Counted from the first letter of the stretch, positions 11,198 through 35,226 are shown. The stretch is 64,000 nt of DNA from Candidatus Omnitrophota bacterium (GCA_035368605.1 DAOSLF010000005.1:54520-118519), one strand, 5' to 3'. The notes: generated by a model from the sequence alone, not told the origin. Made by a program: numbers and translations.

Positions 11198-11218
11198 ATC
11201 CAACCTCGTAGGTTGGAT
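11198..11218. repeat. Family-A 21-bp perfect palindrome ATCCAACCTCGTAGGTTGGAT (copy 1, intergenic hisG/mgtC)
   Basis: Exact palindrome with the conserved flanks ccgAATCCAACC...GGTTGGATcggtt. The same element occurs at 16698-16740 (two copies), 26725-26745 and 35206-35226. Confidence 0.8.
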
Positions 11219-11235
11219 CGGTTCATGGGGGATGG

Positions 11236-11712
11236 TCAGGGACGCTCTTCCCTCTTCGGCGGCAGGACCTTTTCCTGCACCTTGGAAAAAATGACGAACA
11301 CGATCAGGACCAGCACCGTCGTAAAAATCGCCGGGCGGAACAGGCCGAGGCCGCAGGCAAGCCCGACGCCGCACATGGCCCATATCCCCGCCGCGGTCGT
11401 CAGCCCCCTCACAGCGCCCTGCGAGGAACGGATGATCGCGCCCGCCCCGAGGAACCCGATCCCGGTCACAACCTGCGCCGCGATGCGCGCGGGATCCACG
11501 ACCGTGATACCCCTGTACGTCTCAAAAATATTGATCGAGACGATCATCATGAGCGCGGAGCCGATACAGACGAGCGTGTAGGTCTTGAACCCCGCCTCTT
11601 TCATGCTGAGCTCGCGCTCAAGCCCGATCGCGGCGCCAAGCCCGGCGGCCATGAGAAGGCGGTAAATCGTTTCAACGTCCTGAGGGGTCAAAAAAGAAAG
11701 CCATGGACACAT
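11236..11712 (-). CDS. MgtC/SapB family membrane protein
   Basis: 158 aa with the MgtC N-domain pattern GLGAAIGLERE...DPARIAAQVVTGIGFLGAGAIIR...GLTTAAGIW. Confidence 0.8.
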   Translation of the reverse strand: MCPWLSFLTPQDVETIYRLLMAAGLGAAIGLERELSMKEAGFKTYTLVCIGSALMMIVSINIFETYRGITVVDPARIAAQVVTGIGFLGAGAIIRSSQGAVRGLTTAAGIWAMCGVGLACGLGLFRPAIFTTVLVLIVFVIFSKVQEKVLPPKREERP

Positions 11713-11726
11713 GTGAACCTCCCGAT

Positions 11727-11803
11727 TCAGTACGGAGTACGAAGTTTCGGGTGCGGAGATATGATAGCCGACCTTCCGCTCCGCACGTCGCCCCCCGTAC
11801 CCG
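11727..11803. repeat. Family-B hairpin repeat, copy R2 (intergenic mgtC/tsaD)
   Basis: cagtacggagtacgaagtttcgggtgcggag ... ctccgcacgtcgccccccgtaccc, with internal complementarity gtgcggag/ctccgcac. Confidence 0.45.
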
Positions 11804-11885
11804 TTAACGTATTTGCAACTCCGGCTCGCCGGTCATTGAAAAACGGCATCTGGTGTTTGGTGAGACCGGCCGTCCGGTACCATTA

Positions 11886-13028
11886 CTAACGGCCACCCGC
11901 GGCCATAGCTAAAGACGGCTCTCCCGTCATCCTGAAAGACGATCGGCGGCCTTGCTGAAAAAGCCCGAATCCGCGCCGGGCAATCATGGCACCGTTATCG
12001 GTCGAAAGCGGGAACGGCGGAAACCAGACCTCGACTCCCTTGGCCCTCGCCTCCCGGGTCAGTTTATTCCGGAGATGCGAGTTCGCGCTCACCCCTCCGC
12101 CGACCACGATATCCGATACACCCTTGAACCCGGCCGCGTCGAGTGTTTTTGTGACCAGCCAATCAATGACCGCGCGCTGGAAACTCGCGGCAATGTCCGC
12201 GCTCGACGGCGCGTCCGGCTTCGGCTGTCCCGTCTTCGGGTCTTTCACGAGGTAAAGCACCGCGGTTTTGATGCCCGAAAAACTAAAATCAAAGCGATGG
12301 GTATCATGAGCCTCCCGGTTCCCCCCCTCGAAAGAAGGGGAAGACTTCCCGGAAAATCGCCCCAACCTGGGGCACGTGAATTGAACCGCGCGCGGGTTCC
12401 CCTCCCGGGCGAGCCTGTCGATCACGGGACCGCCGGGGTAACCGAGATCGAGGATCTTCGCGACCTTGTCGTAGGCTTCGCCGACCGCGTCGTCGATCGT
12501 TTCGCCGAGGACGCGTATCTTCCCTTTTTCGCAATAAGTGATCGTCGTGTGCCCGCCGGAGACGAGGAGTCCGATGAACTTTTCAGGCGCGGGCCGGTCG
12601 AAAAAATTCGCGGCGAGGTGCGCCTCCATATGATTGACGCCGACAAGCGGGATGCCGAGCTCATAGGCGAGCGCCTTCGCGAAGGAGACGCCGACGAAAA
12701 GCGAGCCGATCAGTCCCGGCCCCTGCGTCACCGCGATCAGATCGAGGTCCGGGGCCCGGATTTTCGCCTCCGCGAGCGCCTCGTCAAAAACGCAGCGGAT
12801 CTGTTCCATCGAATGCCGCGACGCGATCTCGGGCACGACGCCGCCGAATTTCCTGTGCCGGAAGAGACTCGAGGAAACAACATTGGAGAGGATCTTCGCA
12901 CCGTTTTCGATGACGGCGCAGGACGTTTCGTCGCAGGAGGTTTCGATACCGAGTACGTAGAACGGGGCACGGAGTCCGCGGCCGGCCGCTCCGCCCTTAC
13001 GCCGTACTAGTTTTTTAGCTTGCGACAT
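11886..13028 (-). CDS. tsaD: tRNA N6-threonylcarbamoyladenosine synthase TsaD (Kae1/Gcp). Start at MSQAKK; the listed ORF 11886..13349 is an Arg-rich 5' extension.
   Basis: Core VLGIETSCDETSCAVI..., the HMEAH metal site and a GGVSAN-type C-domain. The only canonical start upstream of the GIETSCDE motif is the ATG at 13026-13028. It overlaps the gatB 3' end by 22 nt, and its first 24 codons are encoded by a family-B repeat. Confidence 0.85.
   Translation of the reverse strand: MSQAKKLVRRKGGAAGRGLRAPFYVLGIETSCDETSCAVIENGAKILSNVVSSSLFRHRKFGGVVPEIASRHSMEQIRCVFDEALAEAKIRAPDLDLIAVTQGPGLIGSLFVGVSFAKALAYELGIPLVGVNHMEAHLAANFFDRPAPEKFIGLLVSGGHTTITYCEKGKIRVLGETIDDAVGEAYDKVAKILDLGYPGGPVIDRLAREGNPRAVQFTCPRLGRFSGKSSPSFEGGNREAHDTHRFDFSFSGIKTAVLYLVKDPKTGQPKPDAPSSADIAASFQRAVIDWLVTKTLDAAGFKGVSDIVVGGGVSANSHLRNKLTREARAKGVEVWFPPFPLSTDNGAMIARRGFGLFQQGRRSSFRMTGEPSLAMAAGGR
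12946..13012. repeat. Family-B repeat, copy R3; its minus-strand reading starts CTAGTACGGCGTAAGGGCGGAG
   Basis: It is highly similar to the minus-strand reading of R4 (CTAGTACGAGGTACGGGGTGCGGAG). The TAG within CTAG is the gatB stop codon, and the element is translated as the TsaD N-terminal extension. Confidence 0.5.
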
Positions 13029-14503
13029 AAGATCTCGTTGACGACCTTCGGATTCGCCTTGCCTCCCGTCTCTTTCATGACGAAGCCCACGATCGCACCG
13101 ACGGCCTTCTGCTTCCCGGCCTTGAACTCGGCGACGGCGTTCGGATTCGCGGCGATCGCTTTCTCGACGGCCTCTTCGATCAGCCCCGCGTCGGAGACCT
13201 GGACGAGGCCCTTTTCTTTCACGAGCGTTTCCGCGTCCTTGCCGGTCTCGAACATCATCCCGAGCACGTCCTTCGCGATCTTCCCGGAGATGGTCCCGCC
13301 CTCGATCAGATTCAGAAGACCCGCGAACGCTTTCGGCGCCACCGGACAATTTTCGACCGTAAGACCTTTCGCGTTCAGGAGGGCGAGGAGTTCCGTCAGA
13401 ATCCAGTTACTCGCCCGTTTCGCGGAAAAGGGGTCAGACACCTTTTCCCTGTCTTCCGAAAAAGGTGTCTGACCCCTTTCGCGGCCCTTGAGACATTCTT
13501 CGAAATAGTCCGCGACCTTCTTGTCCTCGACGAGCGTGCAGGCGTCGTATTCGGGAAGACCGTGGTCCCTCATGAACCGCTTCGCGCGCTCAAGCGGTAA
13601 TTCGGGCAGTGTCTTCCGGATCGCTTCGACCGTTTCGCGCGTCAGCGTGAAAGGCACGAGGTCCGGGTCGGGGAAATAGCGGTAGTCATGCGCGTCCTCT
13701 TTCGAACGCATGGAAAAGGTCATACCTTTCGCGTCGTTCCAAAGCCGCGTCTCCTGGACGATCGTTTCGCCGTCCGTGATCGCTTCGATCTGCCGTGCGA
13801 TCTCGCACTGGATCGCGCGCTGGACCATCTTGAACGAGTTCAGGTTCTTGATCTCGACCTTCGTCCCGAACTTTTCCTGACCGACGGGACGGACCGACAC
13901 GTTCGCGTCGCAGCGGAGGCTTCCTTTTTCCATGTCGCAGTCGCTCACTTCCGCGTACCGGAGAATGGCCTTGAGCGCGGTCAGGTAATCGTAGGCCTCC
14001 TGCGGCGAACGGATATCGGGTTCGGAAACGATCTCAAGAAGCGGCACGCCGCCCCGGTTGTAATCGACAAGGCTCCCGTCCACGATGCCTTCGTGGAGAA
14101 GTTTGCCCGCGTCCTCTTCGAGGTGCGCGCGCGTAATCCCGATTTTCTTTTCGACTGTTTTTCCGTCCGGAGTTTTCGTTTCGATCAGGACTTCGCCGCG
14201 GCCGTTCACGGGCATATCGTATTGCGATATCTGATACGCCTTCGGAAGATCGGGATAAAAGTAGTTCTTGCGGTCAAACTTGAGCCGCTCCGCGACCTTG
14301 CAGTTCAGCGCGAGCCCCGCCTTGATGCCAAGCCTCAGCGCCTCTTCATTCACCACCGGCAGGGACCCCGGCCAGCCGAGACACACCGGGCACGTGTTCC
14401 GGTTCCCCTCTTCCCCGAACGTCGTCGGGCAAGGGCAGAACAACTTGCTCTTTGTCTTCAGCTGCACGTGGACTTCCAATCCGATTACGGGTTCGTAGTT
14501 CAT
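13007..14503 (-). CDS. gatB: Asp/Glu-tRNA(Asn/Gln) amidotransferase subunit B
   Basis: 498 aa beginning MNYEPVIGLEVHVQLKTKSKLFCPCPT... with C-terminal YqeY-like domain motifs. A GGGAG SD is embedded in the last codons of the upstream GIY-YIG ORF. Confidence 0.95.
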   Translation of the reverse strand: MNYEPVIGLEVHVQLKTKSKLFCPCPTTFGEEGNRNTCPVCLGWPGSLPVVNEEALRLGIKAGLALNCKVAERLKFDRKNYFYPDLPKAYQISQYDMPVNGRGEVLIETKTPDGKTVEKKIGITRAHLEEDAGKLLHEGIVDGSLVDYNRGGVPLLEIVSEPDIRSPQEAYDYLTALKAILRYAEVSDCDMEKGSLRCDANVSVRPVGQEKFGTKVEIKNLNSFKMVQRAIQCEIARQIEAITDGETIVQETRLWNDAKGMTFSMRSKEDAHDYRYFPDPDLVPFTLTRETVEAIRKTLPELPLERAKRFMRDHGLPEYDACTLVEDKKVADYFEECLKGRERGQTPFSEDREKVSDPFSAKRASNWILTELLALLNAKGLTVENCPVAPKAFAGLLNLIEGGTISGKIAKDVLGMMFETGKDAETLVKEKGLVQVSDAGLIEEAVEKAIAANPNAVAEFKAGKQKAVGAIVGFVMKETGGKANPKVVNEILCRKLKN

Positions 14504-14506
14504 TTT

Positions 14507-15121
14507 CTATTCTCCCGCTTCAAACCTTCTCCTGCGTTCTTCAAGCGTTTCGCCCTCGTACATCCAATAAATCGGCCCCTGCACTGAGTACTCTCTTCCA
14601 AGGGCTTTTTGGGCTGCGTTTGAAAGGCTTGTAACTTCTCCATTATATTCAACAGACCGGTTATCAATGACTTTCGCTTTTATGTTTTCATCATTAATGA
14701 AGAAAAGCTCCGCCCCCGGCGGGATATCAACCATTTTAAAATTGAAGATAGCACGCTTTGCGCGAGCCTGATTTAAGGCCTGCCGATCTTCTTCCGTTTC
14801 AACATAATCTTTTTTAGGCGTAACATTCTCAACTTCGGCAAGCCGCAGTGCCGCAAGAGCTCGCTCCGGAGCAATCTCAAAAAATTCTCTGCTGAAACGG
14901 ACGCGCCGATCCGAGAATGCATCATGCAACTGCTTTTCAACAAAATTTGCATTTTTGACGGTGCAAGCATAAAAGCATTCGAACGGAAGCGGCATATTTG
15001 TTGTGTCCAGATCGCGAATGCGCTTTTCGAGATTGGTCGTCCGCCCAATTTTTACATACCCGGGCATGGCTTCATTAATGAGAATATAGACTATTTCATC
15101 CATAAAACTCTTTTCCCTCAA
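14507..15121 (-). CDS. GIY-YIG-superfamily protein (T5orf172/MUG113-like N-domain plus DUF4357-like C-domain), AT-rich and inserted between gatA and gatB
   Basis: 204 aa. The N-domain IVYILINEAMPGYVKIGRTTNLEKRIRDL...EKQLHDAFSDRRVRFSREFFEI matches T5orf172. The C-terminal YWMYEGETLEERRRR matches the DUF4357 pattern. The coding sequence is visibly AT-rich compared with its flanks. Its stop TAG lies 4 nt before the gatB ATG. Confidence 0.7.
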   Translation of the reverse strand: MREKSFMDEIVYILINEAMPGYVKIGRTTNLEKRIRDLDTTNMPLPFECFYACTVKNANFVEKQLHDAFSDRRVRFSREFFEIAPERALAALRLAEVENVTPKKDYVETEEDRQALNQARAKRAIFNFKMVDIPPGAELFFINDENIKAKVIDNRSVEYNGEVTSLSNAAQKALGREYSVQGPIYWMYEGETLEERRRRFEAGE

Positions 15122-15438
15122 GCGCTATTTTTAAACCGTTTGTCGTCAAACAAAAGACATCCGCGCCCAAACAATACCGATTTGCTTTCCCGTCTGTTTG
15201 AAAACCTTTTGAACAGACGCCGGATAATCCGCGGATTCGCCGGGATGTGCGCCCATCATAACCGGTATCCCGGCCTTTGACGGTAATCCCCTCCTGACAC
15301 AAAATTCACTGCCGTTCGTCCGGTTTTCCGGCGGGCCGGGGAATTCCGTCCCGGTCCAATTTGCCCGCATGCGGTTAAATTCACTTCCGGGCCGGGCTTC
15401 CGCCACCGTTTCAATCTGCGCGGCTGAAACGGTTCCTG

Positions 15439-16881
15439 CTAGTCCAGCTTCGGCTTTCTTTTATAGACCCTGGCTTCCTGCTCAAACGCGTAGGCGGCGC
15501 GGAACATCGTCGCCTCGTCAAAGGGCCGGGCCATGAGCTGCATGCCGATGGGCAGGCCGCCCGAGGTAAATCCGCACGGCACCGACATCGCCGGAATGCC
15601 CGCGATGTTCGCCGGGACCGTGAAGATATCGGACAGGTACATCGCGATCGGATCCGCCGCCTTTTCGCCGAGCTTGAAGGCCGGCGTCGGCGAGGTCGGC
15701 GACAAGATAACATCGACTTCCCTGAAGGCCTTCTCAAAATCCCGGCGGATCAGCGTCCGGACCTTCTGCCCTTTCAAGTAGTAAGCCTCGTAGTAGCCGG
15801 CCGAGAGCACGAACGTCCCGAGAAGGATGCGCCGCTTGGTCTCCTGGCCGAAGCCCTGGTTACGGGTTTCAAAATACATTTCGCGAAGGTCCTTTGACGG
15901 AACGCGCAGGCCGTACTCCACGCCGTCGAACCGGCTGAGGTTCGAGCTCGCCTCCGCGACGGCGACGATACAGTAGACCGCGACGGAATATTCCGTGTGC
16001 GGAAGGCTGACCGGCTTGAGTTCGGCACCGAGCTTCCTGTAGAGGTCCGCCGCGGCGCGGACGCTTTTTTCGACTTCCGGGTCGATGCCTTCGATGAAAT
16101 ATTCCTTCGGGAGGCCGATCTTCAGGCCTTTCACGTCACGCTTGAGCGATTGCGTGAAATCCGGCACGGGCCGGGGCGCGGACGTGGAATCTTTCGGGTC
16201 GTGACCGGCGAGGATGTTCATGAGGATCGCGGCGTCCTCGACCGTCTTCGTGACGGGACCGATCTGGTCAAAGCTCGAACCGAACGCGATGAGCCCGTAG
16301 CGCGAGACGCGGCCGTAGGTCGGCTTCACGCCCACCACGCCGCAGAGCGCCGCGGGCTGGCGGATTGAACCGCCGGTGTCGGAACCGAGCGCCGCAAGCG
16401 TCATGTCCGCCGCGACCGAGGCCGCCGAGCCGCCGCTCGAGCCGCCCGGCACGCGCGTGAGGTCCCAGGGATTTTTGCACGGGCCGAACGCGGAAGTCTC
16501 ACAGGATGAACCGAACGCGAACTCGTCCATATTACACCGGCCAAAGAGCGTCGCGTCCGCCGCCTTCAGCTTCGCGATCACGGTCGCGTCGTAGGGCGGC
16601 ACGTGCTTCTCGAGAATCCGCGATGCGCAGGTCACTTCCCGGCCTTCGATGCAGATATTGTCCTTGCTGGAGACCGGAGCGCCGTACAGTGAACCGCTCC
16701 AACCTCGCAGGTTGGATTTATCCAACCTGCGAGGTTGGATATGGTTGTCAAAATCCAGGAAAGCGTTGATCCCGGGATTCAGTTCAGCGGCGCGTTTCGT
16801 GAACGCGTCGAGCAGAGGCTGGGCGCCCTCTTTTTTCGCGAACTCGATCCCTTCTTTGAGAGTAAACCTGATCAGATCCAT
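15439..16881 (-). CDS. gatA: Glu-tRNA(Gln) amidotransferase subunit A
   Basis: 480 aa with the amidase signature GGSSGGSAASVAA and the SKDNICIEG...TTCASRILE motifs. Residues about 46-62 (NHIQPRRLDKSNLRGWSG) are encoded by two tandem family-A palindromes. Confidence 0.95.
   Translation of the reverse strand: MDLIRFTLKEGIEFAKKEGAQPLLDAFTKRAAELNPGINAFLDFDNHIQPRRLDKSNLRGWSGSLYGAPVSSKDNICIEGREVTCASRILEKHVPPYDATVIAKLKAADATLFGRCNMDEFAFGSSCETSAFGPCKNPWDLTRVPGGSSGGSAASVAADMTLAALGSDTGGSIRQPAALCGVVGVKPTYGRVSRYGLIAFGSSFDQIGPVTKTVEDAAILMNILAGHDPKDSTSAPRPVPDFTQSLKRDVKGLKIGLPKEYFIEGIDPEVEKSVRAAADLYRKLGAELKPVSLPHTEYSVAVYCIVAVAEASSNLSRFDGVEYGLRVPSKDLREMYFETRNQGFGQETKRRILLGTFVLSAGYYEAYYLKGQKVRTLIRRDFEKAFREVDVILSPTSPTPAFKLGEKAADPIAMYLSDIFTVPANIAGIPAMSVPCGFTSGGLPIGMQLMARPFDEATMFRAAYAFEQEARVYKRKPKLD
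16698..16740. repeat. Two tandem family-A palindromes (TCCAACCTCGCAGGTTGGAT tt ATCCAACCTGCGAGGTTGGAT) inside the gatA coding sequence, in frame
   Basis: Seen directly in the sequence. The second copy has its central CGC flipped to GCG. Both copies are translated as part of GatA. Confidence 0.8.
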
Positions 16882-16938
16882 TTCGGCTCATGATAACCCG
16901 CACCGGATAAATCCGGCCTCGCGGGTCGGTTACGGTTA

Positions 16939-17223
16939 TTAATCGCGTTGCACTATTTTCGGGACTTTGAAGAAACGGCCGTCGGCGCACGGAGCATGTT
17001 CAAGGGCCTTCGTGGCCGCGTCCGTGGACCGCGCCTCGTCCTTCCGGCAAACGTTTTCGAGATCAAGGACATGGCTCGTCGGCTCGACGTTTTCCGTGTC
17101 GAGTTTTTCGAGGTTCTTCACATAGTCGAGGATCGCCCCGAGGTCTCTTTCGAGCCTGGCCTTCTCTTCGGCCTTCAGATTGAGCCGCGCAAGCTGCGCG
17201 ACCTCGTCGATATTGAATTCCAT
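16939..17223 (-). CDS. gatC: Asp/Glu-tRNA amidotransferase subunit C
   Basis: 94 aa beginning MEFNIDEVAQLARLNLKAEEKARLERDLGAILDYV; it is the first gene of a gatCAB cluster. Confidence 0.85.
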   Translation of the reverse strand: MEFNIDEVAQLARLNLKAEEKARLERDLGAILDYVKNLEKLDTENVEPTSHVLDLENVCRKDEARSTDAATKALEHAPCADGRFFKVPKIVQRD

Positions 17224-17401
17224 AAGTTTACCCCGTTAGAGATGGGCCTCGCCCGGAGAGCGCGACCGTGTGCCTTCCCGGTTATCATTACATTCCCGAT
17301 CACCCCGCCTGACCAATCCCGCAAGGAATCACTACGCGATGATCTCTGACGGGGCGGGACATTCTGCCCGAAGGGACGTGGCGTGTCAACGAAGCGGAGG
17401 G

Positions 17402-17956
17402 TCAGAGCGCGCCGTCATAGCGGTTGAACGCGCCGATCTCCGCGAGAGACTTCCGGTTCTTCGGAACAACCTGGTCCTCGGCCGGGTACCCGAGCGCGAT
17501 CACGACGTCGACCTTGCGGTCCTTCGGGACGCCGAGCTCCTCCTTCAGGGCCTTCTCATCGAACCAGCCGACCCAGCAGGTCCCGAGGCCGAGCTCCCGG
17601 GCCCGCAGGACAAAGTGCTCTCCCGCGATTCCGATATCGGTCAGGTAATATTCGGTCTTCCGGACCTGCGCCCCGACGGCGGCGAGAAACTTCATCTTTT
17701 CCGAAACCACCGCGATAATCACGGGCGCGTTCTTCGCGAACTCGTTCATGGAATAAAGTCCCGAAAAGATTCTCCCCGCGAGCCGCGCGCGTTTCCCGGG
17801 ATCATCCACCACAATAAATTTCCAGGGCTGGGAATTGCACGCCGACGGCGCGAGGCGGGCCGCCTCGAGGCAGGCAAGAATATCCTCCCGCTTGACGGGT
17901 TTATCGGAAAATCGCCGGACGCTTCTTCGCTTCAGGACAAGATCAGTAAAGGACAT
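17402..17956 (-). CDS. Nitroreductase family protein (FMN-dependent)
   Basis: RRSVRRFSDKPVKREDILACLEAARLAPSACNSQPWKFIVV. An AAGGAG SD lies upstream. Confidence 0.85.
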   Translation of the reverse strand: MSFTDLVLKRRSVRRFSDKPVKREDILACLEAARLAPSACNSQPWKFIVVDDPGKRARLAGRIFSGLYSMNEFAKNAPVIIAVVSEKMKFLAAVGAQVRKTEYYLTDIGIAGEHFVLRARELGLGTCWVGWFDEKALKEELGVPKDRKVDVVIALGYPAEDQVVPKNRKSLAEIGAFNRYDGAL

Positions 17957-18272
17957 GCCGTATCTCCTTGAGGGAAGTGATTCTACACCCTGACCTCAAA
18001 AGGGCTACCGTTAATTTCAAGCCCCCGGAAGCCGATGTTCAAACGGGCCCCAAAACCGCCGTTATCTATTATTCCTGAAAAAGAGGCGACAAGATCCGCG
18101 ACGCGCTCATGAAAAAGTACGGAAATCCGCACAAGACCTCGCGATATTACCGGCATTACAAATGGCGCGGCTCCTCGTTCGGCGAGGAGATTATCCTGGA
18201 TTGTTTCCGGGATTCGGAGAAGATGAAGAACACGACCGAACCGGTCTTCGACGCCGGCAAGGCATATCGCCC

Positions 18273-26710: not shown

Positions 26711-26724
26711 TATCCCTCAACCGA

Positions 26725-26745
26725 ATCCAACCTCGCAGGTTGGAT
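26725..26745. repeat. Family-A palindrome ATCCAACCTCGCAGGTTGGAT (copy 4) in the 38-nt spacer between the TolC-like and RND genes
   Basis: Exact palindrome, with flanks aaccgAATCCAACC...GGTTGGATtggtt extending it to about 34 bp. Confidence 0.8.
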
Positions 26746-26748
26746 TGG

Positions 26749-28146
26749 TTATCCTTTCAGTCTTGCGTTCACCTGGCGGATGCCGTCTTCCGTAAGCTGG
26801 CCGGAAAGAAAAAGAAGTTTCGCGTACTGGAGCTCAAGCGCGAGACGCAGGTTTTCGCGCCCGGCCGAGGTCTCGAAATAGGCCCGGCGCATCTCGAGGA
26901 GGTCCGCGATCGATTTGCGCCCTTCCTGGTAAAGTTTCGCCGTGAGCTCCGATGCCTCCTTCGCGTCGGCGCAAGCCCCTTTCATGACGGGCGCGTCGAG
27001 CGTGGCGGTCTCGTAGCGCGCAAGCTCCCCGACGAGATCCCTCGCGATCGCGTCGCGGAGCGCGTCGCGATCGGCCTTGAGCGCCTTGTATTTCGCGTTC
27101 GCGTCCTTCACGCGTCCGGGAAGGCCCGGATCGAAAAAGTCCATCGTTCCCTTCATTCCGATCGAAAAGCCCCGGCCGCCGGTGTGCCAGTCGTGGCTGT
27201 TTTCATCCAGGCTCGCGAACCCGTAGACCTTCGGGAGGAAGGAGGTCTTCCGACGCGTCCGTTCGATCCCCTGCGCGTCGAGCATCTGGTCCAGGGCCGC
27301 GAGGTCCTGACGCTTTTGATAGGCCTGCGCGAGCCACGCTTCGAGCGCACTCTTGTCCTGCGCGGTCTCGGGGAATTTTCCGACGGCGTTCCACGTCATC
27401 TCCGGGCTTTCCCCCATCAGGATGTTCATCAACATGTAAGAAGTCTTCCGCAGGGCGCTGAGCCGGTTCACTTCCCGTTCGATCCCCGCCGCGATCACCT
27501 TCGCCGCGTAATAATCCGCGCCGAGGATCATCCCCTTGTCGTTGAGGTCTTTCGCCTGCTGCAGGTCCTTGTCGGAGGCCCGTTTGACCTCGACCGCGAC
27601 GTTATAAAGCGTGTTGGCGAGCAGGATACCGAGATAGCTCTCGAGCGTCACGATCGCGGCTTCCATTTCCGTAAAATCAGCTTCGAGGTCGGCCGACTTC
27701 ACGAGCCGGCGCGCTTCGCGGATCTTCGAGATCGTATTGAACGAATCGAAAAGCAGCATGTCCCCCTCGATGCCAAACCGGTGATTGGTCCGGTGACGGG
27801 GGGTGTTGAGCGCCGGGAGCGCAAAGTTGTTCGAGGTGAAGGACTCCTGACGCAGGAGACTGCCGAACACGAACACCGGATCGTCCGAGGTCTGCATTTC
27901 GTAAACGCCGCGGATCTTCGGGAAAAGTTCGGAGATGACAAGGTTACGGCCCGCCTTCGCCTGTTCCAGCCGTTCGTAGCGTTTGCGGAGCGCGGGATAA
28001 TACCTGAGAACCTTCTCATAACAATCGAGAAAGGTCATCCCGGGGTCTGAAGCGGGCACAGGCACGGAGGCCGTGTCCGCGGACGCGACCTGTATCATAA
28101 AAAAAATAGCGGCGAAGAACGCCGACGCCTTTTTTCCGGTCAACAT
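26749..28146 (-). CDS. TolC-family outer-membrane efflux protein
   Basis: 465 aa with signal peptide MLTGKKASAFFAAIFFMIQVASA and two repeated coiled-coil/beta-strand halves typical of the OEP family. It is immediately upstream of the RND gene. Confidence 0.85.
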   Translation of the reverse strand: MLTGKKASAFFAAIFFMIQVASADTASVPVPASDPGMTFLDCYEKVLRYYPALRKRYERLEQAKAGRNLVISELFPKIRGVYEMQTSDDPVFVFGSLLRQESFTSNNFALPALNTPRHRTNHRFGIEGDMLLFDSFNTISKIREARRLVKSADLEADFTEMEAAIVTLESYLGILLANTLYNVAVEVKRASDKDLQQAKDLNDKGMILGADYYAAKVIAAGIEREVNRLSALRKTSYMLMNILMGESPEMTWNAVGKFPETAQDKSALEAWLAQAYQKRQDLAALDQMLDAQGIERTRRKTSFLPKVYGFASLDENSHDWHTGGRGFSIGMKGTMDFFDPGLPGRVKDANAKYKALKADRDALRDAIARDLVGELARYETATLDAPVMKGACADAKEASELTAKLYQEGRKSIADLLEMRRAYFETSAGRENLRLALELQYAKLLFLSGQLTEDGIRQVNARLKG

Positions 28147-28275: not shown

Positions 28276-29193
28276 ATGAACAGGATCATGACAAAAAATC
28301 TTTTTGGAACAATCGCAAAGGCGGGACTGCTTCTTTCCCTGATCGCAATCCTCCCTTCAACAGGGAGCGCCGGGGAACGTCCTCTTTTCGCCCGTGCCGA
28401 TAAATCGACTCCCGTGCTGAACACACCGGATTTCAGGTCCGTGTTCGGAGGCGGGGACGGGAGGACTCTGAAACGGGATGCCTCGGGGCTGATCCGCGAG
28501 GTCGAGTTCATCGCCTTGCCCGGAACGGCCTTTGTGGTCGAAACCTCCCTCAAGGTCCGCGGCGCCACGGTCTACCGCGTCCGCACGCCGGAATATCCTT
28601 CTCCCGCGAGCGGCCTTTTCGTCGACAGCCGTTTCGTGTCGGTTTCCGCGAAACCCTTCCCTCCTCGCATGAAGATCCTGCCGCGCGCGAGGCAAATTCT
28701 TGACCGGATGCTGAGTCACGAAGGCGCGAGGTATGTGTGGGGCGGCAATGCCCCCGGAGGCATCCCCGAACTTTTAACGTTTTATCCGCCCGCGGGGGCG
28801 CTTTCCCCGGCAACAAAAAACATGTGGTCTCTCCGCGGCCTGGATTGCTCGGGTCTTCTCTACGAAGCCACCGGAGGCGCAACGCCTCGCAACACATCGG
28901 ATCTCGTCACTTTCGGAAAACCCGTCGCGGTCGCGGGACTGACCCCGGGACAGATCGCGGCCAAACTCCGGCCGCTCGATTTGATCGTCTGGAAAGGTCA
29001 TGTGATCATCGTGCTCGATGAAGAACACACGATCGAAAGCTGCATGGGCTGCTCCCCGCGGGGAGGCGTCACGGTCCGTGACCTGCGCGCCGTCCTCAGG
29101 GAGGTCATGCGCACCCGCACCCCCGAGAACCACTATCCCGCCCAAACCATCCCGTCCCGGAAAACCTTCGTGGTCCGCCGCTGGTTTCCCTGA
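28276..29193 (+). CDS. SH3b-domain NlpC/P60 (C40) cell-wall peptidase, secreted
   Basis: Signal peptide, then an SH3-like region, then NlpC/P60 with the catalytic Cys in GLDCSGLLYE and His in KGHVIIVLDEEH. The start may be at either in-frame ATG (28276 or 28288). Confidence 0.8.
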   Translation: MNRIMTKNLFGTIAKAGLLLSLIAILPSTGSAGERPLFARADKSTPVLNTPDFRSVFGGGDGRTLKRDASGLIREVEFIALPGTAFVVETSLKVRGATVYRVRTPEYPSPASGLFVDSRFVSVSAKPFPPRMKILPRARQILDRMLSHEGARYVWGGNAPGGIPELLTFYPPAGALSPATKNMWSLRGLDCSGLLYEATGGATPRNTSDLVTFGKPVAVAGLTPGQIAAKLRPLDLIVWKGHVIIVLDEEHTIESCMGCSPRGGVTVRDLRAVLREVMRTRTPENHYPAQTIPSRKTFVVRRWFP

Positions 29194-29266
29194 AAAAGCG
29201 CGGACGGAGTCAGCGGACAGATTCAGAGCCCGGGGGCGGAAACAGGGAAAAACATGACCGGACGGT

Positions 29267-30745
29267 TTAATGCCAGGAGGCACGCCGCTCGCGGGCGCGG
29301 CGGTAAATCTCTTCGTAGCGTTTCGCGGAATCGTGCCAGGAAAAACGCTGTTTCATCGCGAGCTTTCGCATCATTTCGATGTGCCGCGGACGGTCAAAGT
29401 AAGTGCTGACGGCCCAACGCACGGTCCCGTAGATCGCTTCCGGAGTGGCATCGTAAAAGAGGAATCCCGTACCGGCGCCCGTCCTTTCATCGTACTGGAT
29501 GACCGTGTCCCGGAGCCCGCCCGTCGCGCGAACGATCGGGAGCGTTCCGTACCGGAGGCTGTACATCTGGTTCAGGCCGCAGGGCTCGTAGAGCGACGGC
29601 ATGAGGAAGAAATCGGAACCCGCCTCAATCAGATGGGCCTTCCTGTTACTGTATCCGATCCAGGCCCCGACGCGTCCGTGATGAACGGCGGGCAGCCCGC
29701 CGAAGAAATCCTCCTGCCATTTTTCGCCGGTCCCGAGGATCACGAACTGCGCTTTCGTGTCGCGGAGCAACCGGACGATCACCGGCATGAGATTCTGGAG
29801 CCCCTTTTGGGGAGCGAACCTTGTGATGATTCCGATCACGGGAACGTTCGCCGCGTTCTCGAGATGAAACTCCGTCTGAAGAGCGTGTTTGCAGACCGCC
29901 TTGCCGCGAAGGTCTTCGGCGGAATAATGCGCCGGGATCAGCTTGTCGGTCGAAGGATCCCAGTGGTCGTAATCGGCGCCGTTCAGGACGCCGGACACAT
30001 CGTCGCGGCGCCGGTTCAGATATTCGGAAAGGCCGTTGCCGCCCGGCTCGGAAAGGATCTCCCCGGCATACGTGGGACTGACGGTGGAGATGTGGTCCGC
30101 GAAAAAGATCGCGCCTTTCATCAGGTTGACGCCGCCGTAGTTTTCGAGAATCTCCTGCCTGTAATTTTCCGGACCGAGCCCGAGGAACGGGTACCGGTCC
30201 CCCTTGAACGTGCCCTGATACGCGATATTGTGGATCGAAAAGACGCTGGCCGTATGTTTGAAGAAAGGATCGTTCTTGTACCAGGTCTTGAGATACACGG
30301 GTATGAGGGCCGTTTGCCAGTCATGCGCGTGGATGATATCAGGGACGAACTTCAGGTCTTTGCAAAGCTGGAGCGCCGCCTTCGAAAAAAAGCCGAACCG
30401 TTCTATGTTGTCCGGATGCTCCCAGTTGCCGTCATCATAAAGCCCGGCGCGGCCGAAATACTGTTCGTGTTCGACGAAATAGACCGGGAAACCGTCCGCC
30501 TTGCCCTGGAGGACCTCGCACCAGACTGTTCCGCCGCCCATTTCGACCCCCATCGGGGCGAGGATCGTCTTGAGATTGTTGGCGTAGCGGTCGACCGCCC
30601 AGTACCGCGGCAGGACAAGCCGGACATCGTGGCCCAGCTTTTTGAGGATCTTCGGGAGGGCGCCGCAGACATCCCCGAGCCCGCCCGTCTTCACGAACGG
30701 AACAGCCTCGGAGGTGACAAAGAGAATCTTGAACTTGCCCGGCAT
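29267..30745 (-). CDS. glgA: Glycogen (starch) synthase, ADP-glucose type GT5. The start is probably at MPGKFKILFV; the listed ORF extends to 30820.
   Basis: KILFVTSEAVPFVKTGGLGDVCGALPK is the GlgA signature, and the overall length fits. Confidence 0.9.
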   Translation of the reverse strand: MPGKFKILFVTSEAVPFVKTGGLGDVCGALPKILKKLGHDVRLVLPRYWAVDRYANNLKTILAPMGVEMGGGTVWCEVLQGKADGFPVYFVEHEQYFGRAGLYDDGNWEHPDNIERFGFFSKAALQLCKDLKFVPDIIHAHDWQTALIPVYLKTWYKNDPFFKHTASVFSIHNIAYQGTFKGDRYPFLGLGPENYRQEILENYGGVNLMKGAIFFADHISTVSPTYAGEILSEPGGNGLSEYLNRRRDDVSGVLNGADYDHWDPSTDKLIPAHYSAEDLRGKAVCKHALQTEFHLENAANVPVIGIITRFAPQKGLQNLMPVIVRLLRDTKAQFVILGTGEKWQEDFFGGLPAVHHGRVGAWIGYSNRKAHLIEAGSDFFLMPSLYEPCGLNQMYSLRYGTLPIVRATGGLRDTVIQYDERTGAGTGFLFYDATPEAIYGTVRWAVSTYFDRPRHIEMMRKLAMKQRFSWHDSAKRYEEIYRRARERRASWH

Positions 30746-31018
30746 CTGCTTCCCGCCGGGGGATGTTCGTTTCACCCGAGCGGTCATTTTTTTCTTTGTT
30801 GGCATAGATTTTGGAATCATATCACAATATTTTTCTAAAAAAACGGAAAATCATCGGCGGAATCGTGCCTCGGGGGCTGTCAACGGCCATCCTCCTCCCT
30901 TGTGTTATAATTCGAATTCGCCCGCAGATTTCCTCAAAACCGTTAAAAGCGGGACCCGTGCGTAATCAGGAGCTATCAAAAAAATGACGCCTCTTTCTTT
31001 TGCGGAAGGCATTGCGAC

Positions 31019-31924
31019 ATGGAATCCGTAACCTCCGACGGAACAAAACCGCTCGTCAGCGTCATCATCCCCTTTTACAACCGGGCGCATGTCCTCCCCC
31101 GCGCCGTTGATTCCGTCCTTGCGCAAAGGGGCTGTAACTTCGAGCTCATTCTCGTGGACGACGGATCGACGGACGCGGCAACGCCCGGACACGGAGCGCA
31201 AAGTACGAAATACGGAGAAAAAGCCACCGGCCGTCACACTGTACTCCGCGCCCCGCACTCCGTGCCTGTTCGATGGATTTCTCAATCAAATAAAGGCCCT
31301 TCCGCCGCGCGCAATCTCGGCATCCGTCACGCGCACGGCAAATGGATCGCGTTCCTCGATTCCGACGACGAGTGGAAACCCGGCAAGCTCAAGGCGCAGA
31401 TGAAGTTCTTCGAAGAAAATCCGGACTACCGGATTTGTCAGACCGAGGAGATTTGGGTCCGAAACGGCGTGCGCGTCAATCCGATGAAGAAACACAAAAA
31501 ATACGGCGGCTGGATTTTCGAAAAGTGCCTGCCGCTTTGCGTTGTGAGCCCGTCGGCCGTCATGATGCACCGCACGCTCCTCGACGAGATCGGCCTTTTC
31601 GACGAATCGCTCCCCGCCTGCGAAGATTACGATCTCTGGCTCCGGATCGCCTCCCGTTATCCCGTCGGGCTGATCGAAAAACCTTACCTCATTAAATATG
31701 GCGGACACGCGGACCAGCGCTCCCGCGAATTCCCGGCAATGGACCGGTTCCGCATCCGCTCGCTCGTGAAACTGTTAAGGGAAGGCTTCCTCACACCGGA
31801 ACAGACCCTCGCCGCCCGGAAAACCCTTGAGGAAAAATCCCGCATCTTCATCCGGGGCGCGTTAAAGCACGGGAACCGGAAGGAAGCCGGGGAAATCCAG
31901 AGGCTTATCGCGGAGAGTTTATAA
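31019..31924 (+). CDS. Family 2 glycosyltransferase (GT-A), carrying an atypical ~35-aa insertion after the DDGSTD motif
   Basis: VSVIIPFYNRAHVLPRAVDSVLAQ..ELILVDDGSTD ... SARNLGI ... the FLDSDDEW DXD motif ... CEDYDLWLRI. Confidence 0.8.
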   Translation: MESVTSDGTKPLVSVIIPFYNRAHVLPRAVDSVLAQRGCNFELILVDDGSTDAATPGHGAQSTKYGEKATGRHTVLRAPHSVPVRWISQSNKGPSAARNLGIRHAHGKWIAFLDSDDEWKPGKLKAQMKFFEENPDYRICQTEEIWVRNGVRVNPMKKHKKYGGWIFEKCLPLCVVSPSAVMMHRTLLDEIGLFDESLPACEDYDLWLRIASRYPVGLIEKPYLIKYGGHADQRSREFPAMDRFRIRSLVKLLREGFLTPEQTLAARKTLEEKSRIFIRGALKHGNRKEAGEIQRLIAESL

Positions 31925-32074
31925 CCTTTCACCACGCGCCCGGCACCATGGACCAGGCGCGGCCACTGTTTCGCAGAGTTTCGCCCGTTTCGCTTCCGCC
32001 GTTTCGGGCTTTTTCAATAAGGTTGCCGGCCCGCGCTGTTCTTGGGCGGAAAGTTTTCCGGCGGGGCGTCCCGG

Positions 32075-33238
32075 TCAGCCCAGCACGGCCCTGACCGCCG
32101 GCAGGATTCTTTCGGCCTGCCAGCGCATGAGACCGCCGGCCTCCATGACGCCCTCAACCGTCGAGGGACGACAACGCACAATATCGACCGCGGCGGCGCG
32201 GGAGACCAGAAAACAGGCTTCGATCTTCAGTTCGTCAGCGATCTTCTTGCACGCGGCGCGCAGTTCCTCCACTTTTTCGCCGGAGACCGGCGCCTCCCGC
32301 GTGAAGGTCATCTTCAGCGGCTCGGGAAAGGCTTCCGCGGGACAGGCCCGCGCGCGACGGATCGCGTCTTCCAGTCTCGTGAGAGTGCCGCCGCTGACCT
32401 TCCGGAGGAAGGCGGGACCTCCCGCGACAGACGCGCCCGGATTCGCGGCAAGCCACCCGGCGAGCGCGATCAGATTCTCGTTCGACATGACCATGAACGG
32501 CGGACGGTCCCGGCGCCGGGACTCGGCGTCGCGCCACGACCAGAGCTCCTTCACGTAGACAAGCACCCCGGACGGCAGCTTCGAGGATCCTTTGATTCGC
32601 CATTCCTCCCTCTCCCCGGCCTTATCCGGACGACCGGAAACTTCGACGACGCGCTCGCAACACTCCCGGTGCCATTCGAGCCGACCCAGGGACTGAAGCT
32701 CACCGGTCATCCGAGCGGCGACGGTTTCGAGATACCGGGTGTCGTCCGCCGCGTAGGTCAGATGCCTGGCCAACAAGGGACGCCGGGCCCAGTCGGCTTT
32801 CCGGGAAGATTTCGGAAGAACGACCCCGCAGAACTTTTCGACAAGCGCCGCGAGACCGATCTTTTCGTAACCAAGCACCTGCGCGGCAAGCATCATGTCG
32901 AAAACGGGCGCGGCAGGCCGGAACCCGAAGGTCTTTTTCATCATCCGCAGGTCATAGTCCGCGCCCTGGATAATCAGTTCCTTGCGGGAGAGTTCCGCGA
33001 GGAATTCCCCGAGATCGAGCCGCGCGAGAGGATCGACCACATAGGTAGCCCCCGCAAAACTCAGCTGGATCAGGCAGACCTTCTCGAAATAATGATGGAG
33101 GCTGTCGGCCTCGGTGTCGAAGGCGACACGGTCAACCGTACGAAGGGCCGCGGTCAGACGGGAAAGGGCTTCCGCGCGGTCGACATAGATGAATTGCGAA
33201 CTGAGCGCGGGGCCGGTGTTCTTTTGCATGGGAAGCAT
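32075..33238 (-). CDS. rnd: Ribonuclease D (DEDDy 3'-5' exonuclease plus HRDC); start at MLPMQKN
   Basis: VAFDTEADSLHHYFEKVCLIQLS is the Exo I motif, and ARHLTYAADDTRYL is Exo III with the catalytic Tyr. A C-terminal HRDC-like region follows. Confidence 0.8.
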   Translation of the reverse strand: MLPMQKNTGPALSSQFIYVDRAEALSRLTAALRTVDRVAFDTEADSLHHYFEKVCLIQLSFAGATYVVDPLARLDLGEFLAELSRKELIIQGADYDLRMMKKTFGFRPAAPVFDMMLAAQVLGYEKIGLAALVEKFCGVVLPKSSRKADWARRPLLARHLTYAADDTRYLETVAARMTGELQSLGRLEWHRECCERVVEVSGRPDKAGEREEWRIKGSSKLPSGVLVYVKELWSWRDAESRRRDRPPFMVMSNENLIALAGWLAANPGASVAGGPAFLRKVSGGTLTRLEDAIRRARACPAEAFPEPLKMTFTREAPVSGEKVEELRAACKKIADELKIEACFLVSRAAAVDIVRCRPSTVEGVMEAGGLMRWQAERILPAVRAVLG

Positions 33239-33320
33239 TATACAACACCGGGGAAATTCTCCGCGCACGCGCGTCCCTTTTGCCTTTCCCATTCCGGGAT
33301 TTGTGAATAAAATACCGCTC

Positions 33321-34049
33321 ATGACGAACCTCCTCGCCGTCGAAACCTCCGGGCCTTTCCTGAGCGTCGCCGTTAAAAAAGGCGGCCGTCCCGTCCGCCG
33401 CGCTCACATGAAAGGCTTCTCACGCCATGTTGAGAGCTTGATCCCCTTGATCGACCGGCTCCTTAAAAAAGAAAAATTGTCCATCCGGGACATCGGCGCC
33501 TTTTTGATCGGACGGGGTCCGGGTTCGTTCACGGGGCTCCGGGTCGGCTTCGCGACGCTGAAAGGCTTTCTTGCGGTACGAGAACGGCCGTGTTTCGGCG
33601 CCCTGTCGCTCGACCTGATCGCCGCGAACGTCAATCCGGGGCGGGGTGATCCCGGCTCAAATCGGGTTCGCACCCCGATTCTGGCCGTGTGTTTGAATGC
33701 CAAGCGTGATAAACTTTATGTTCGTTCGTACCGTTACCACAAGAAAGGGTGGAAACCTCTCGGGGCGCCGGCGGCCGAGGAGCCGGGCGCGTGGCTTGGA
33801 GGATTGCCCGAAGGTACCTGGATCGCCGGCGATGGACTGGCGATCTGCCGCCTTGGGCTTTTGGGAAAGCTCGGGCCGCTTCCCGAAAAACACTGGTACC
33901 CGGACGCCGCGACATTGATCGCACTGTATGAAAGAAAGGATCCGTTGCTCCGAAAGCTGACCAGACCGAAAGACTTGTTGCCGTTCTATTTGCGGGCTTC
34001 CGAAGCCGAGGAACGGCTTAAAACAGCCGGGAGCCGCTCTCGGCGCTGA
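33321..34049 (+). CDS. tsaB: tRNA threonylcarbamoyladenosine biosynthesis protein TsaB (YeaZ); start at MTNLLAVETS
   Basis: LLAVETSGPFLSVAV...GRGPGSFTGLRVGFATLKGF is an inactive Kae1/YeaZ-family signature. Confidence 0.8.
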   Translation: MTNLLAVETSGPFLSVAVKKGGRPVRRAHMKGFSRHVESLIPLIDRLLKKEKLSIRDIGAFLIGRGPGSFTGLRVGFATLKGFLAVRERPCFGALSLDLIAANVNPGRGDPGSNRVRTPILAVCLNAKRDKLYVRSYRYHKKGWKPLGAPAAEEPGAWLGGLPEGTWIAGDGLAICRLGLLGKLGPLPEKHWYPDAATLIALYERKDPLLRKLTRPKDLLPFYLRASEAEERLKTAGSRSRR

Positions 34050-34067
34050 GCTCCTGGCGGAAATCAT

Positions 34068-35201
34068 ATGTCACAACTCACTCAGAGCATTGTTAAACAT
34101 CAGCACGCATCGTGGGTCGAACTGCGTTCAGACCGTCTCCTCGCGAATCTTGAAGCCCTCCGGCAAAGATCGGGGACCTCCGACGCGCTTGCGGTGATCA
34201 AGGCCAATGCGTATGGGCACGGGTTGAACGAGATCGCGAAGATTCTCGACGGCAGGGTCAATTTCTTCGGCGTCGCAACGCTCCGCGAAGGACTGGAACT
34301 GAAGGAACGTCATCCCGGGACTCCGGTCTTCCTCTTCGGACATCCTTTTCCTCATGAGGTTTCCGCCGCGATCGGCGCCAATCTTGTCCTGAGCGTCTCC
34401 AGCTTCGATAAAGCGAAAGAGATTTCCGATTGCTCGGAACAGCTCGGCAGACAAACCCGCGTCCATCTCAAGATCGACACCGGCATGGGCCGCATGGGCA
34501 TCAAGGTCCGGGAGGCCGCAAGGGAGATCATGAAAATCCGCGCGCTGAAAGGCATTCTGCTCGACGGCATTTACATGCACTTCCCGACCGCGGAAACGGA
34601 CGACGATTTCCGCGCCGGACAGGTCGCAAAATTCAGCGCCCTGATCGAGGATCTGGACCGCGGCGGCATCGCTTTCCGTTTCCGCCACGCGCAGAACAGC
34701 GCCGCGAGTCTGAATCTGAAAACCCCCATGCTTAACATGATCCGGCCCGGACTTGCCCTCTACGGCATCTATCCGGGCACAGGATTCGCCGATGCCGCGT
34801 GCCTCGAACCGGTCCTTTCGTTGAAGAGTCGGATCACCTTGATCAAGAGAATCGACGCGGGGGATTCCGTCGGTTATGGCCGCGAATACCGTCCGGACCG
34901 CGAAACAACGATCGCCGTCCTCCCGTTCGGTTACAGCCACGGTTATCCGTGGGCGGCCTGGAAGAAGGCGTGCGTCCTTTATAAAGGAAAACGCTATCCC
35001 CTCGCCGGCAAGGTCTCGATGGATTATCTGACCGTAAACCTCGGAGACCGGAAAGCGGCCGAGGGAGACACTGTGACATTGATCGGCGAGGACGGGGACG
35101 AACGCATTACGGCGGATGAACTCGCCGGATGGGCCGGCACGATACCCTACGAGGTCGTCACGCGGCTGAATCCCCACATTCCGCGCATCGTCCTCTCCTG
35201 A
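34068..35201 (+). CDS. alr: Alanine racemase
   Basis: The PLP-binding motif AVIKANAYGHG is present; 377 aa. Confidence 0.9.
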   Translation: MSQLTQSIVKHQHASWVELRSDRLLANLEALRQRSGTSDALAVIKANAYGHGLNEIAKILDGRVNFFGVATLREGLELKERHPGTPVFLFGHPFPHEVSAAIGANLVLSVSSFDKAKEISDCSEQLGRQTRVHLKIDTGMGRMGIKVREAAREIMKIRALKGILLDGIYMHFPTAETDDDFRAGQVAKFSALIEDLDRGGIAFRFRHAQNSAASLNLKTPMLNMIRPGLALYGIYPGTGFADAACLEPVLSLKSRITLIKRIDAGDSVGYGREYRPDRETTIAVLPFGYSHGYPWAAWKKACVLYKGKRYPLAGKVSMDYLTVNLGDRKAAEGDTVTLIGEDGDERITADELAGWAGTIPYEVVTRLNPHIPRIVLS

Positions 35202-35205
35202 CCTT

Positions 35206-35226
35206 ATCCAACCTCGTAGGTTGGAT
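35206..35226. repeat. Family-A palindrome ATCCAACCTCGTAGGTTGGAT (copy 5), between alr and birA
   Basis: Exact 21-bp palindrome 4 nt after the alr stop. Confidence 0.8.

Follow-up and report, generated by a model that had tools for sequence, protein, structure and literature searches.

Across a 64-kb stretch of DNA from a Candidatus Omnitrophota bacterium (64,000 nucleotides in full, referred to below as the window), a 21-bp inverted repeat recurs at five positions, two of which lie inside gatA, the gene of an essential translation-related enzyme. The locus raises two questions: what kind of element the repeat is, and how a conserved protein can carry two translated copies of it. The analysis indicates that the 21-mer is very probably the core stem-loop of a family of repetitive extragenic palindromes (REPs), and that the gatA pair is a translated dimer, resembling the REP doublets that form hairpins in other bacteria (REPINs), lodged in a permissive linker of GatA.

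All five copies announced in the original prediction are present at the positions expected. A search with the pattern ATCCAACCTCGYAGGTTGGAT, allowing up to three mismatches, returns cores starting at 11198, 16697, 16720, 26725 and 35206, compared with zero matches expected by chance (100 dinucleotide-preserving shuffles); a looser core pattern recovers the same five sites and no others in the window, and a half-site scan of the 64 kb finds no decayed copies. The core, noted ATCCAACCT-NNN-AGGTTGGAT or, in its search form, ATCCNACCN-NNN-NGGTNGGAT, had been described as a perfect palindrome; its 9-bp arms in fact enclose an asymmetric 3-nt loop (CGT, CGC or GCG), so that it is an inverted repeat or stem-loop. 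Likewise, the first gatA copy does not start at 16698 but at 16697, with C instead of A as its first base (the single mismatch to the pattern), and the pair is inverted rather than tandem: the copy at 16720 has the opposite orientation, and the loops read CGC and then GCG on either side of a 2-bp spacer. The flanks, also said to be conserved, are so only in part, although their pairing, AACC-n(n)...n(n)-GGTT, does lengthen the stem to about 14 bp. The full unit spans ~31-35 bp, AACC-nn-ATCCAACCT-CGY-AGGTTGGAT-nn-GGTT, in which a non-terminal GTAG motif extends over the loop/stem junction (C-GTAG-G), and the CGC copies of the window read GCAG instead. The gatA doublet, which has an outer AACC/GGTT flank, folds as one perfect 19-bp hairpin; the predicted RNA folding energies are collected in Table 1.

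The idea that the gatA palindrome is a product of chance or misassembly, unrelated to the intergenic copies, can be set aside with near certainty. No observation supports it, and it is refuted by the zero expected matches, by homologous doublets in two other species and by four assemblies of the species obtained independently from other samples (99.5-99.9% nucleotide identity), in which the doublet is identical; the assembly artefact once named as a possible refutation is thereby removed. A note of caution nevertheless comes from the 3' region of gatA at locus L119 (2637-2659), where the DNA for the conserved peptide FTIPANLAGIP bears a chance resemblance to the hairpin family ATTCCCGC...GCGGGGAT: a hairpin in a gene need not be an inserted repeat.

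The nature of the element becomes apparent from its surroundings in other genomes. The exact 21-mer was found at 28 loci of a genome collection and at 77 loci of a metagenome collection; neither set overlaps the window, whose own genome lies outside both. The loop is far from random, being CGT/ACG in 49 of the 82 metagenome copies, which thus contain GTAG, and CGC/GCG in 8. Most copies are singlets, with tight or near doublets also in L018 and L053. Flank positions 1-5 are paired in about 60-80% of the 65 copies that could be oriented, and beyond this stem extension their flank consensus contains no target motif, direct repeat or target-site duplication. A few A/T-flanked matches in Bacteroidetes look like chance terminators.

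On L005, a contig of the metagenome-assembled genome (MAG) that also encodes the GatA orthologue P0011, the hairpin brackets an open reading frame (ORF) that matches Pfam Y1_Tnp (E = 5e-9, 36.8 bits vs a cut-off of 23) and whose best match in the PDB is the E. coli TnpArep (4ER8, E = 0.003). Homologues of this putative REP-associated tyrosine transposase (RAYT), 37-61% identical, are encoded ~15-40 nt from the same hairpin in L056, L054, L013, L021 and L082, and a further one in L078 has it about 250 nt away. The REP lies on both sides of the gene in L005, L056, L013 and L054, and on one side, within ~15 nt, in L021 and L082. The motifs H87-x-H89 (HUH) and R-Y147-I-H-x-N-P are invariant in six of the RAYT-like proteins, and the genomes bearing them span 34-58% GC, Candidatus Berkelbacteria being among them. 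Judged by its sequence, the 21-mer beside a Y1 transposase in relatives is the defining REP/RAYT arrangement. The earlier designation as a ~30-bp MITE/REP-like element (MITE, miniature inverted-repeat transposable element) can thus be narrowed: REP applies in the strict sense, since RAYT-like Y1 genes are flanked by the same 21-mer in relatives, whereas the features of a MITE are absent.

It is very unlikely, on these grounds, that the copies represent another element or signal, be it a Correia-like MITE derived from a DDE transposon, an intrinsic terminator or an operator site. Short, dispersed palindromes at gene boundaries would suit such a description, and the three intergenic copies lie, as terminators would, 0-13 nt from a stop codon. 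However, no T-run follows any copy (the intergenic flanks read cggttcat, tggttatc and gatggtta), and a terminator scan detected no intrinsic terminator at the copies at 11198 and 35206. Furthermore, the ~30-bp unit has neither terminal inverted repeats around an internal segment nor a target-site duplication, the sole gene consistently adjoining it elsewhere is the Y1/RAYT transposase, and only the mgtC/hisG spacer contains a promoter-like site, at a distance of ~36 nt, three of the four sites being located between co-directional genes and the fourth within a gene.

The REP family having been recognized, the gatA doublet can be considered as a piece of coding sequence. GatA aligns with the GatA chains of solved GatCAB structures at E = 1e-161 (PDB 3H0L) to 1e-131, retains the amidase-signature residues K73, S148 and S172 together with ~200 other invariant columns, and is identical to a protein record from Candidatus Omnitrophota MAGs. 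The proposed translation of the pair, NHIQPRRLDKSNLRGWSG, is correct, and the segment that it encodes, placed at about residues 46-62, spans exactly residues 48-62. Translation of the first copy runs ATC CAA CCT..., and that of the second, shifted by one base, runs TCC AAC CTG.... Both fall between the conserved NAFL and KDNI motifs, in a segment that is hypervariable among 108 Omnitrophota GatA orthologues (14-41 aa, median 25). The claim that the length of this linker is preserved holds in comparison with distant GatAs but fails within the Omnitrophota, where the 30 aa of the window compare with the median given above and with 20 aa in the hairpin-free orthologue P0014. In the AlphaFold2 model of GatA (predicted template-modelling score 0.86), the predicted local distance difference test (pLDDT) falls below 50 at residues 47-54 and averages 49 over residues 51-60, compared with means of 91-94 for residues 1-40 and of 85 for residues 61-80. 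Within the limits of a shallow alignment, in which the segment 311-366 is also poorly modelled, this prediction supports a flexible loop. Taking into account that the net length is a multiple of three, that no in-frame stop occurs and that the linker is flexible and hypervariable, the doublet would simply be translated while GatA stays functional, and the REP-encoded peptide is presumably neutral for function.

The gatA DNA of the window was compared with that of nine further species-level orthologues. P0009 (L029) and P0011 (L031), 85-86% identical at the protein level, carry a doublet at the same codon and in the same phase as the window, with other arms (Table 1). The GatA segment is lineage-variable among the orthologues, as the original prediction anticipated, but the insertion is not confined to one lineage. 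When the three doublets are placed on a long-hairpin model of 19 pairs, 98% of the cells are paired, and the pairs that differ have changed on both sides (7 of 19) and never on one side only, the loop triplets included. With the exception of a single hybrid copy adjacent to the RAYT of L005, the arms ATCCGACCC and ATCCCACCT do not occur outside gatA in the available DNA of those two genomes, whose other REP copies are of the ATCCAACCT type. As the gatA arms do not match the other copies in the same genomes, the comparison leans towards old doublets evolving in situ. Doublets of the same family at the same codon could be independent site-specific insertions; equally, they could be remnants of an ancient insertion followed by loss or replacement, with the arms kept alike by hairpin-templated repair or by copying of the dimer.

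The linker is also occupied by palindromes that are unrelated to the REP. In five further species (L033, L034, L036, L122 and L124) it holds four other palindrome families, which brings the total to at least five unrelated families in the same stretch of 20-40 codons within this Omnitrophota clade. No significant linker hairpin is found in P0014 (L039, 20-aa linker) or P0015 (L119). For the six hairpin-bearing linkers first compared, the differences in length from P0014 are all multiples of three (+18 to +63 nt), as expected if the hairpins are translated. The linker is the most stably folding interval of the whole gene in six of the ten species and ranks in the top 8% in two more; since the orthologues were picked for DNA comparison by their suspicious peptides, the hairpin found in eight of ten is not a measure of prevalence. 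Judged by peptide motif, the linker is occupied in about one in three members of the clade at ≥80% identity: LTPSLSQGERKGEG appears in five further orthologues and GTGSHLMPVP-like peptides in two, with THPGC...PHPGC and DPRLE.SGMT found once each. Elsewhere in genes such structures are rare, only two other perfect hairpins of at least 9 bp, both in L034, being situated deep inside genes in ~115 kb of flanking sequence from six species; the remaining ones are intergenic or at gene edges. At the loci examined, families B and C are also intergenic, and D and E are seen in gatA alone. The family of the P0010 linker, gtcATTCCCGCGAAGGCGGGAATccag, which encodes VIPAKAGIQ, is dispersed (L033 10145-10215 and 611-630; L024 874 and 3430; L038 9632) and occurs as an inverted pair, 2.5 kb apart, on a Saccharibacteria contig; it fits the ATTCCC-N8-GGGAAT pattern of the Neisseria dRS3 repeats.

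These observations bear on a different reading, in which the gatA hairpin is a selected cis-acting structure of mRNA or DNA (a translational pause, a site of RNase III or other processing, or a protein-binding site) for which the various families were recruited or derived. A very stable hairpin recurs at the linker although the linker sequences are unrelated, so that structure appears to be the conserved part; all changes between the three doublets are compensatory, down to the loops; and the mismatch between the arms of L029 and L031 and the ATCCAACCT copies elsewhere in those genomes fits maintenance of pairing in situ. Such selection is nevertheless judged improbable. The hairpin is dispensable, because two close orthologues (P0014 and P0015) lack it and most of the 108 have short linkers. 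In addition, families B and C also occur between genes, copies of family A are scattered through both the window and relatives, the start of the palindrome shifts by a few codons between families, no Rfam family matches at the gathering threshold over positions 10000-37000, and the symmetry of the doublets would arise equally if hairpins served as templates for neutral repair or if copying proceeded by whole dimers.

The history of the site can be followed on a neighbour-joining tree of GatA, computed with the linker removed and with 200 bootstraps; its deep branches are short. In none of the 200 replicates do the three doublet carriers form a clade. Instead, P0011 (doublet) pairs with P0020 (short linker) in 195, P0029 (family D) with P0030 (family E) in 200, P0013 (short linker) with P0019 (family C) in 187, and P0001, the GatA of the window, with P0015 in 180. 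Because carriers pair with non-carriers or with carriers of other families, occupancy differs between close relatives, which, as far as this tree goes, implies repeated gain, loss or replacement at the linker. A single ancient insertion shared by the clade was rejected on the same grounds; given the short deep branches, an ancient insertion with multiple replacements is still compatible with the tree.

On assumed figures of tens of copies per genome and ~10^5 tolerated positions, random insertion would strike a given 30-codon stretch in fewer than 1% of genomes, and on this rough estimate the linker is strongly enriched for insertions. It is proposed, tentatively and with more doubt than confidence, that the GatA linker is more than tolerant, and either acts as a true hotspot where hairpin elements are targeted or retained, or is subject to positive selection for a hairpin. 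In favor of this stand the unrelated families that share the stretch, the presence of one family at an identical codon and phase in non-sister species, and the translated doublet, in which compensatory change keeps the symmetry of the four arms and the loops perfect. The recurrent occupation of one linker in an essential gene is the unusual part of the system.

Outside gatA, three of the four REP sites of the window are extragenic. All three lie between co-directional genes, with 0-13 nt from the upstream stop codon to the extended stem. Copy 1 is situated between the stop codon of mgtC (11236-11238, minus strand) and a promoter-like site of hisG, both neighbors being assigned by Pfam (MgtC and HisG). 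This site, TTGACA-17-TAGAAT (11134-11162, minus strand; near-consensus sigma-70 type, 11/12), has its -35 hexamer ~36 nt downstream of the REP and is kept in the mgtC/hisG spacer of all six related species examined, none of which has a REP there. Copy 3 fills the 38-nt spacer between the genes of a TolC-like protein (OEP) and an RND pump: the OEP stop codon, TAA, is inside the extended stem, the REP ends 4 nt before the GAGGGA ribosome-binding site of the RND gene, and the core is separated from the ATG by 14 nt. In most of the related species, this spacer carries other hairpins instead (Table 1). The extended stem of copy 4 includes the TGA stop codon of alr, and downstream lies a co-directional birA-like gene (35278-35859, plus strand; BPL_LplA_LipB), which is the true neighbor; a minus-strand ORF (35232-35783) considered for this role has no Pfam match and is spurious. 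The birA-like gene is followed by a gene for type III pantothenate kinase (35834-36589).

Every REP copy covered by contigs of the four other assemblies of this species is present in them. As the intergenic copies are missing from the spacers of sister species and present in all four assemblies, they are species-specific but fixed. A role as hairpins on the mRNA, suggested for them earlier, is a plausible inference by analogy, in that structures close to a stop codon may stabilize the upstream message or damp translation at the end of the gene, as REPs do in E. coli.

In-frame reading of the REP is not limited to gatA. The same family occurs in-frame in three other proteins, within or between domains, and is always read as IQPxRLD. 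In a NadE-like protein, the REP is located at residue 277, in the linker between the CN_hydrolase (15-273) and NAD_synthase (289-548) domains; a YgiQ-like radical-SAM protein contains an in-frame doublet that the L005 orthologue lacks; and a giant PPDK_N/Bac_transf protein has an in-frame REP between domains.

Table 1. Positions and sequence features of the REP copies, of the gatA linker and of related elements (L, loci or contigs; P, GatA orthologues; energies in kcal/mol refer to predicted RNA folds)
Feature	Position	Strand	Sequence or loop	Remarks
REP copy 1	11193..11222, core 11198-11218		ATCCAACCT-CGT-AGGTTGGAT	stem through ACCGA/TCGGT, one bulge; -18.6, z = -4.2
gatA inverted REP doublet (REPIN-like)	16692..16746; copies 16697-16717 and 16720-16740	minus	plus-strand loops CGC and GCG	-41.7, z = -9.2
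REP copy 3	26718..26751, core 26725-26745		loop CGC	-17.9
REP copy 4	35199..35234, core 35206-35226		loop CGT	-20.1, z = -4.7
gatA	15439-16881	minus		480 aa, intact
GatA codons 48-62	16696..16740	minus	IQPRRLDKSNLRGWS	wholly doublet-encoded
Hypervariable GatA linker	16666..16755	minus		residues 43-72, between conserved NAFL and KDNI
gatA doublet, window			ATCCAACCT-CGC-AGGTTGGAT + ATCCAACCT-GCG-AGGTTGGAG	spacer AA
gatA doublet, L029			ATCCGACCC-CGG-GGGTCGGAT twice	spacer AA
gatA doublet, L031			ATCCCACCT-ACG-AGGTGGGAT + ATCCCACCT-CGT-AGGTGGGAG	spacer AC
GatA linker, L033 (P0010)			GTCATTCCCGC-gaag-GCGGGAAT...GATCCCCGA...TCGGGGATGAC	+60 nt vs hairpin-free P0014 linker
GatA linker, L034 (P0026)			GGGGACAGGCACC...GGTGCCTGTCCCC	+63 nt vs P0014 linker
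GatA linker, L122 (P0041)			GGGGACAGGCAG...GCCTGTCCCC	family as in L034
GatA linker, L036 (P0021)			CCCTCACC..CCTCTCCC-ggg-GGGAGAGG..GGTGAGGG	+18 nt vs P0014 linker
GatA linker, L124 (P0030)			24-bp perfect palindrome	-52.8
RAYT-like ORF, L005	2974-3630	minus		218 aa; bracketed by hairpins at 2945, 3649 and 3744
OEP/RND spacer, L029	4488-4526		ACACCT-ACG-AGGTGT twice	mini-REP doublet
OEP/RND spacers, L031, L033 and L039	L031 5912-5940; L033 4422-4451; L039 5850-5879		CGCGCAACG...CGTTGYGCG	common long hairpin
Other in-frame REP loci	L070 8442 / L086 8309; L053 3844 and 3879; L056 7738; L023 6822			two in giant multi-domain proteins

Two features of the surroundings deserve mention in their own right. 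The genes are ordered gatC-gatA-(cassette)-gatB, and the interval between gatA and gatB is a variable cassette slot, occupied in the window by a T5orf172/MUG113 gene (14507-15121, minus strand) and in L029, L033, L034, L036, L039 and L122 by Fic, by RhuM+Fic+AbiJ_NTD4, by zf-CDGSH or by small unknown ORFs. Two single perfect hairpins of the window, at 58412-58436 and 63685-63710 (stems of 11 bp and 10 bp), are unrelated to the REP family.

The proposed course of events would then be as follows. A tyrosine transposase of the HUH/Y1 type, with its gene at another place in the genome, would copy REP hairpins in trans via single-stranded DNA; the REP would have settled downstream of the stop codons of co-directional genes at three sites and, as an inverted pair, inside gatA, where it would be translated as residues 48-62. 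We infer that a RAYT of the clade described above is present in the genome of the window and mobilized its copies. The linker would be a recurrent landing or retention site, in which sister species carry co-varied members of the same family, four other families, or nothing, and its repeated occupation may result from tolerance combined with a tendency of palindromic elements to favor sites that are already palindromic.

Several observations weigh against this picture of REPs mobilized by a RAYT and tolerated in a linker. No RAYT homologue is encoded in the 64 kb of the window (tblastn), and the L005 ORF scores 58.7 bits against NCBIfam REP_Tyr_transpos, the REP-associated tyrosine transposase (E = 6e-16), which is under the 80-bit equivalog cut-off. 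Related MAGs contain only 2-4 exact copies each, far below classical REP families. GTAG is located where loop and stem meet, whereas canonical GTAG REPs have it terminally (PMC3733652). Recent mobility of the copies is unsupported, as there is no presence/absence polymorphism within the species across the four assemblies. Finally, pure tolerance offers no easy account of why a single linker of ~30 codons is occupied in many species at a low density of REPs.

Compared with known systems, the closest relatives are the REP/REPIN-RAYT elements of E. coli and Pseudomonas (Bertels & Rainey, PMC3116915, PMC3337134; bioRxiv 10.1101/2021.07.10.451892), with which the present family shares a dispersed, short, imperfect palindrome, singlets alongside inverted doublets able to form a single long hairpin, correlated evolution of the doublet halves, and a cognate HUH/Y1 transposase gene with the repeats at its flanks, here in relatives. 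REPINs are described as about 100 bp long, extragenic and vertically inherited, with a single-copy RAYT (bioRxiv 10.1101/2021.07.10.451892; PMC3116915), and their transposition has been described as extremely rare (bioRxiv 10.1101/2021.07.10.451892). Unlike them, the doublet described here measures about 45-55 bp with a 2-bp spacer, and in gatA it is intragenic and translated, whereas classical REPINs are described as being almost exclusively extragenic; the low copy number in related MAGs and the RAYT score under the equivalog cut-off are further differences. In contrast to the vertical inheritance of REPIN-RAYT systems, an identical 21-mer and RAYTs that are 42-61% identical are found in Omnitrophota and in phyla of the Candidate Phyla Radiation (CPR). 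The CPR genomes in question belong to Berkelbacteria and Saccharibacteria (GC about 38%; L013 6027-6773, L021 5299-5997, L009, L011, L015, L016, L022 and L024), and in Berkelbacteria the 21-mer flanks a RAYT that shares 42-48% identity with its Omnitrophota counterpart. From the sequences compared, a REP/RAYT pair common to Omnitrophota and CPR would be hard to square with strictly vertical inheritance.

In-frame REP dimers are already a known phenomenon, because in-frame REPs within genes have been documented, the majority of them as dimers (Di Nocera et al. 2013, PMC3733652). As in those GTAG/CGTC REPs, singlets and dimers lie here in-frame in known proteins, the inserts adding about 15-30 residues, and the very short spacer has a parallel in the GTAG-17/19 REP dimers of Opitutus terrae (PVC superphylum), whose spacers are 1-2 bp (PMC3733652). 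That study does not mention gatA, the host gene here, and in the present family GTAG is at the loop/stem junction instead of at the end of the element. It also reports different REPs at about the same recB site in two Xanthomonas species (PMC3733652); unlike that precedent, at least five unrelated families occupy one linker across many species here, and members of one family whose arms differ in a compensated manner stand at an identical codon in non-sister species. The distinct features of the present case are thus the position of GTAG, the very compact dimer, the occurrence of REP/RAYT in Omnitrophota and CPR and, above all, the repeated occupation of the linker.

The resemblance to the in-frame Rickettsia palindromic elements (RPEs) drawn in the original prediction stands with respect to the confirmed in-frame insertion in gatA: in both cases, palindromic repeats lie in-frame in essential genes and are tolerated at loops. 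Unlike RPEs, the unit is about 30 bp long (the doublet about 50 bp), its sequence is unrelated and its host is Candidatus Omnitrophota. RPE-1 is about 100-150 bp long and restricted to Rickettsia, and it is not known to have a RAYT partner. Like Correia elements and other bacterial MITEs, the REPs are small non-autonomous repeats at gene boundaries that may form hairpins on mRNA; unlike them, they lack an internal region bordered by terminal inverted repeats, a target-site duplication and an origin from DDE transposons.

None of the papers in the collection searched combines Omnitrophota with REPs. The present analysis adds a REP/RAYT family of Candidatus Omnitrophota, common to CPR phyla, to a field built almost wholly on Proteobacteria, and provides a clean case of an essential translation-related enzyme that includes a translated REP dimer. 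It also carries a warning for annotation, in that the peptides IQPRRLD, VIPAKAGIQ, LTPSLSQGERKGEG and GTGSHLMPVP inside conserved proteins are encoded by repeats. If it is true that the REP/RAYT pair is common to Omnitrophota and CPR, this would contradict the strictly vertical inheritance of REPIN-RAYT systems. The repeatedly occupied site gives a handle on the choice of targets by REPs, on the tolerance of proteins towards palindrome-encoded peptides and on hairpin-templated concerted evolution; should the GatA linker truly be a hotspot, it would constitute a natural system for studying how REP/RAYT elements choose their insertion sites, and a rare instance in which the coding sequence of an essential enzyme undergoes concerted evolution that preserves a structure.

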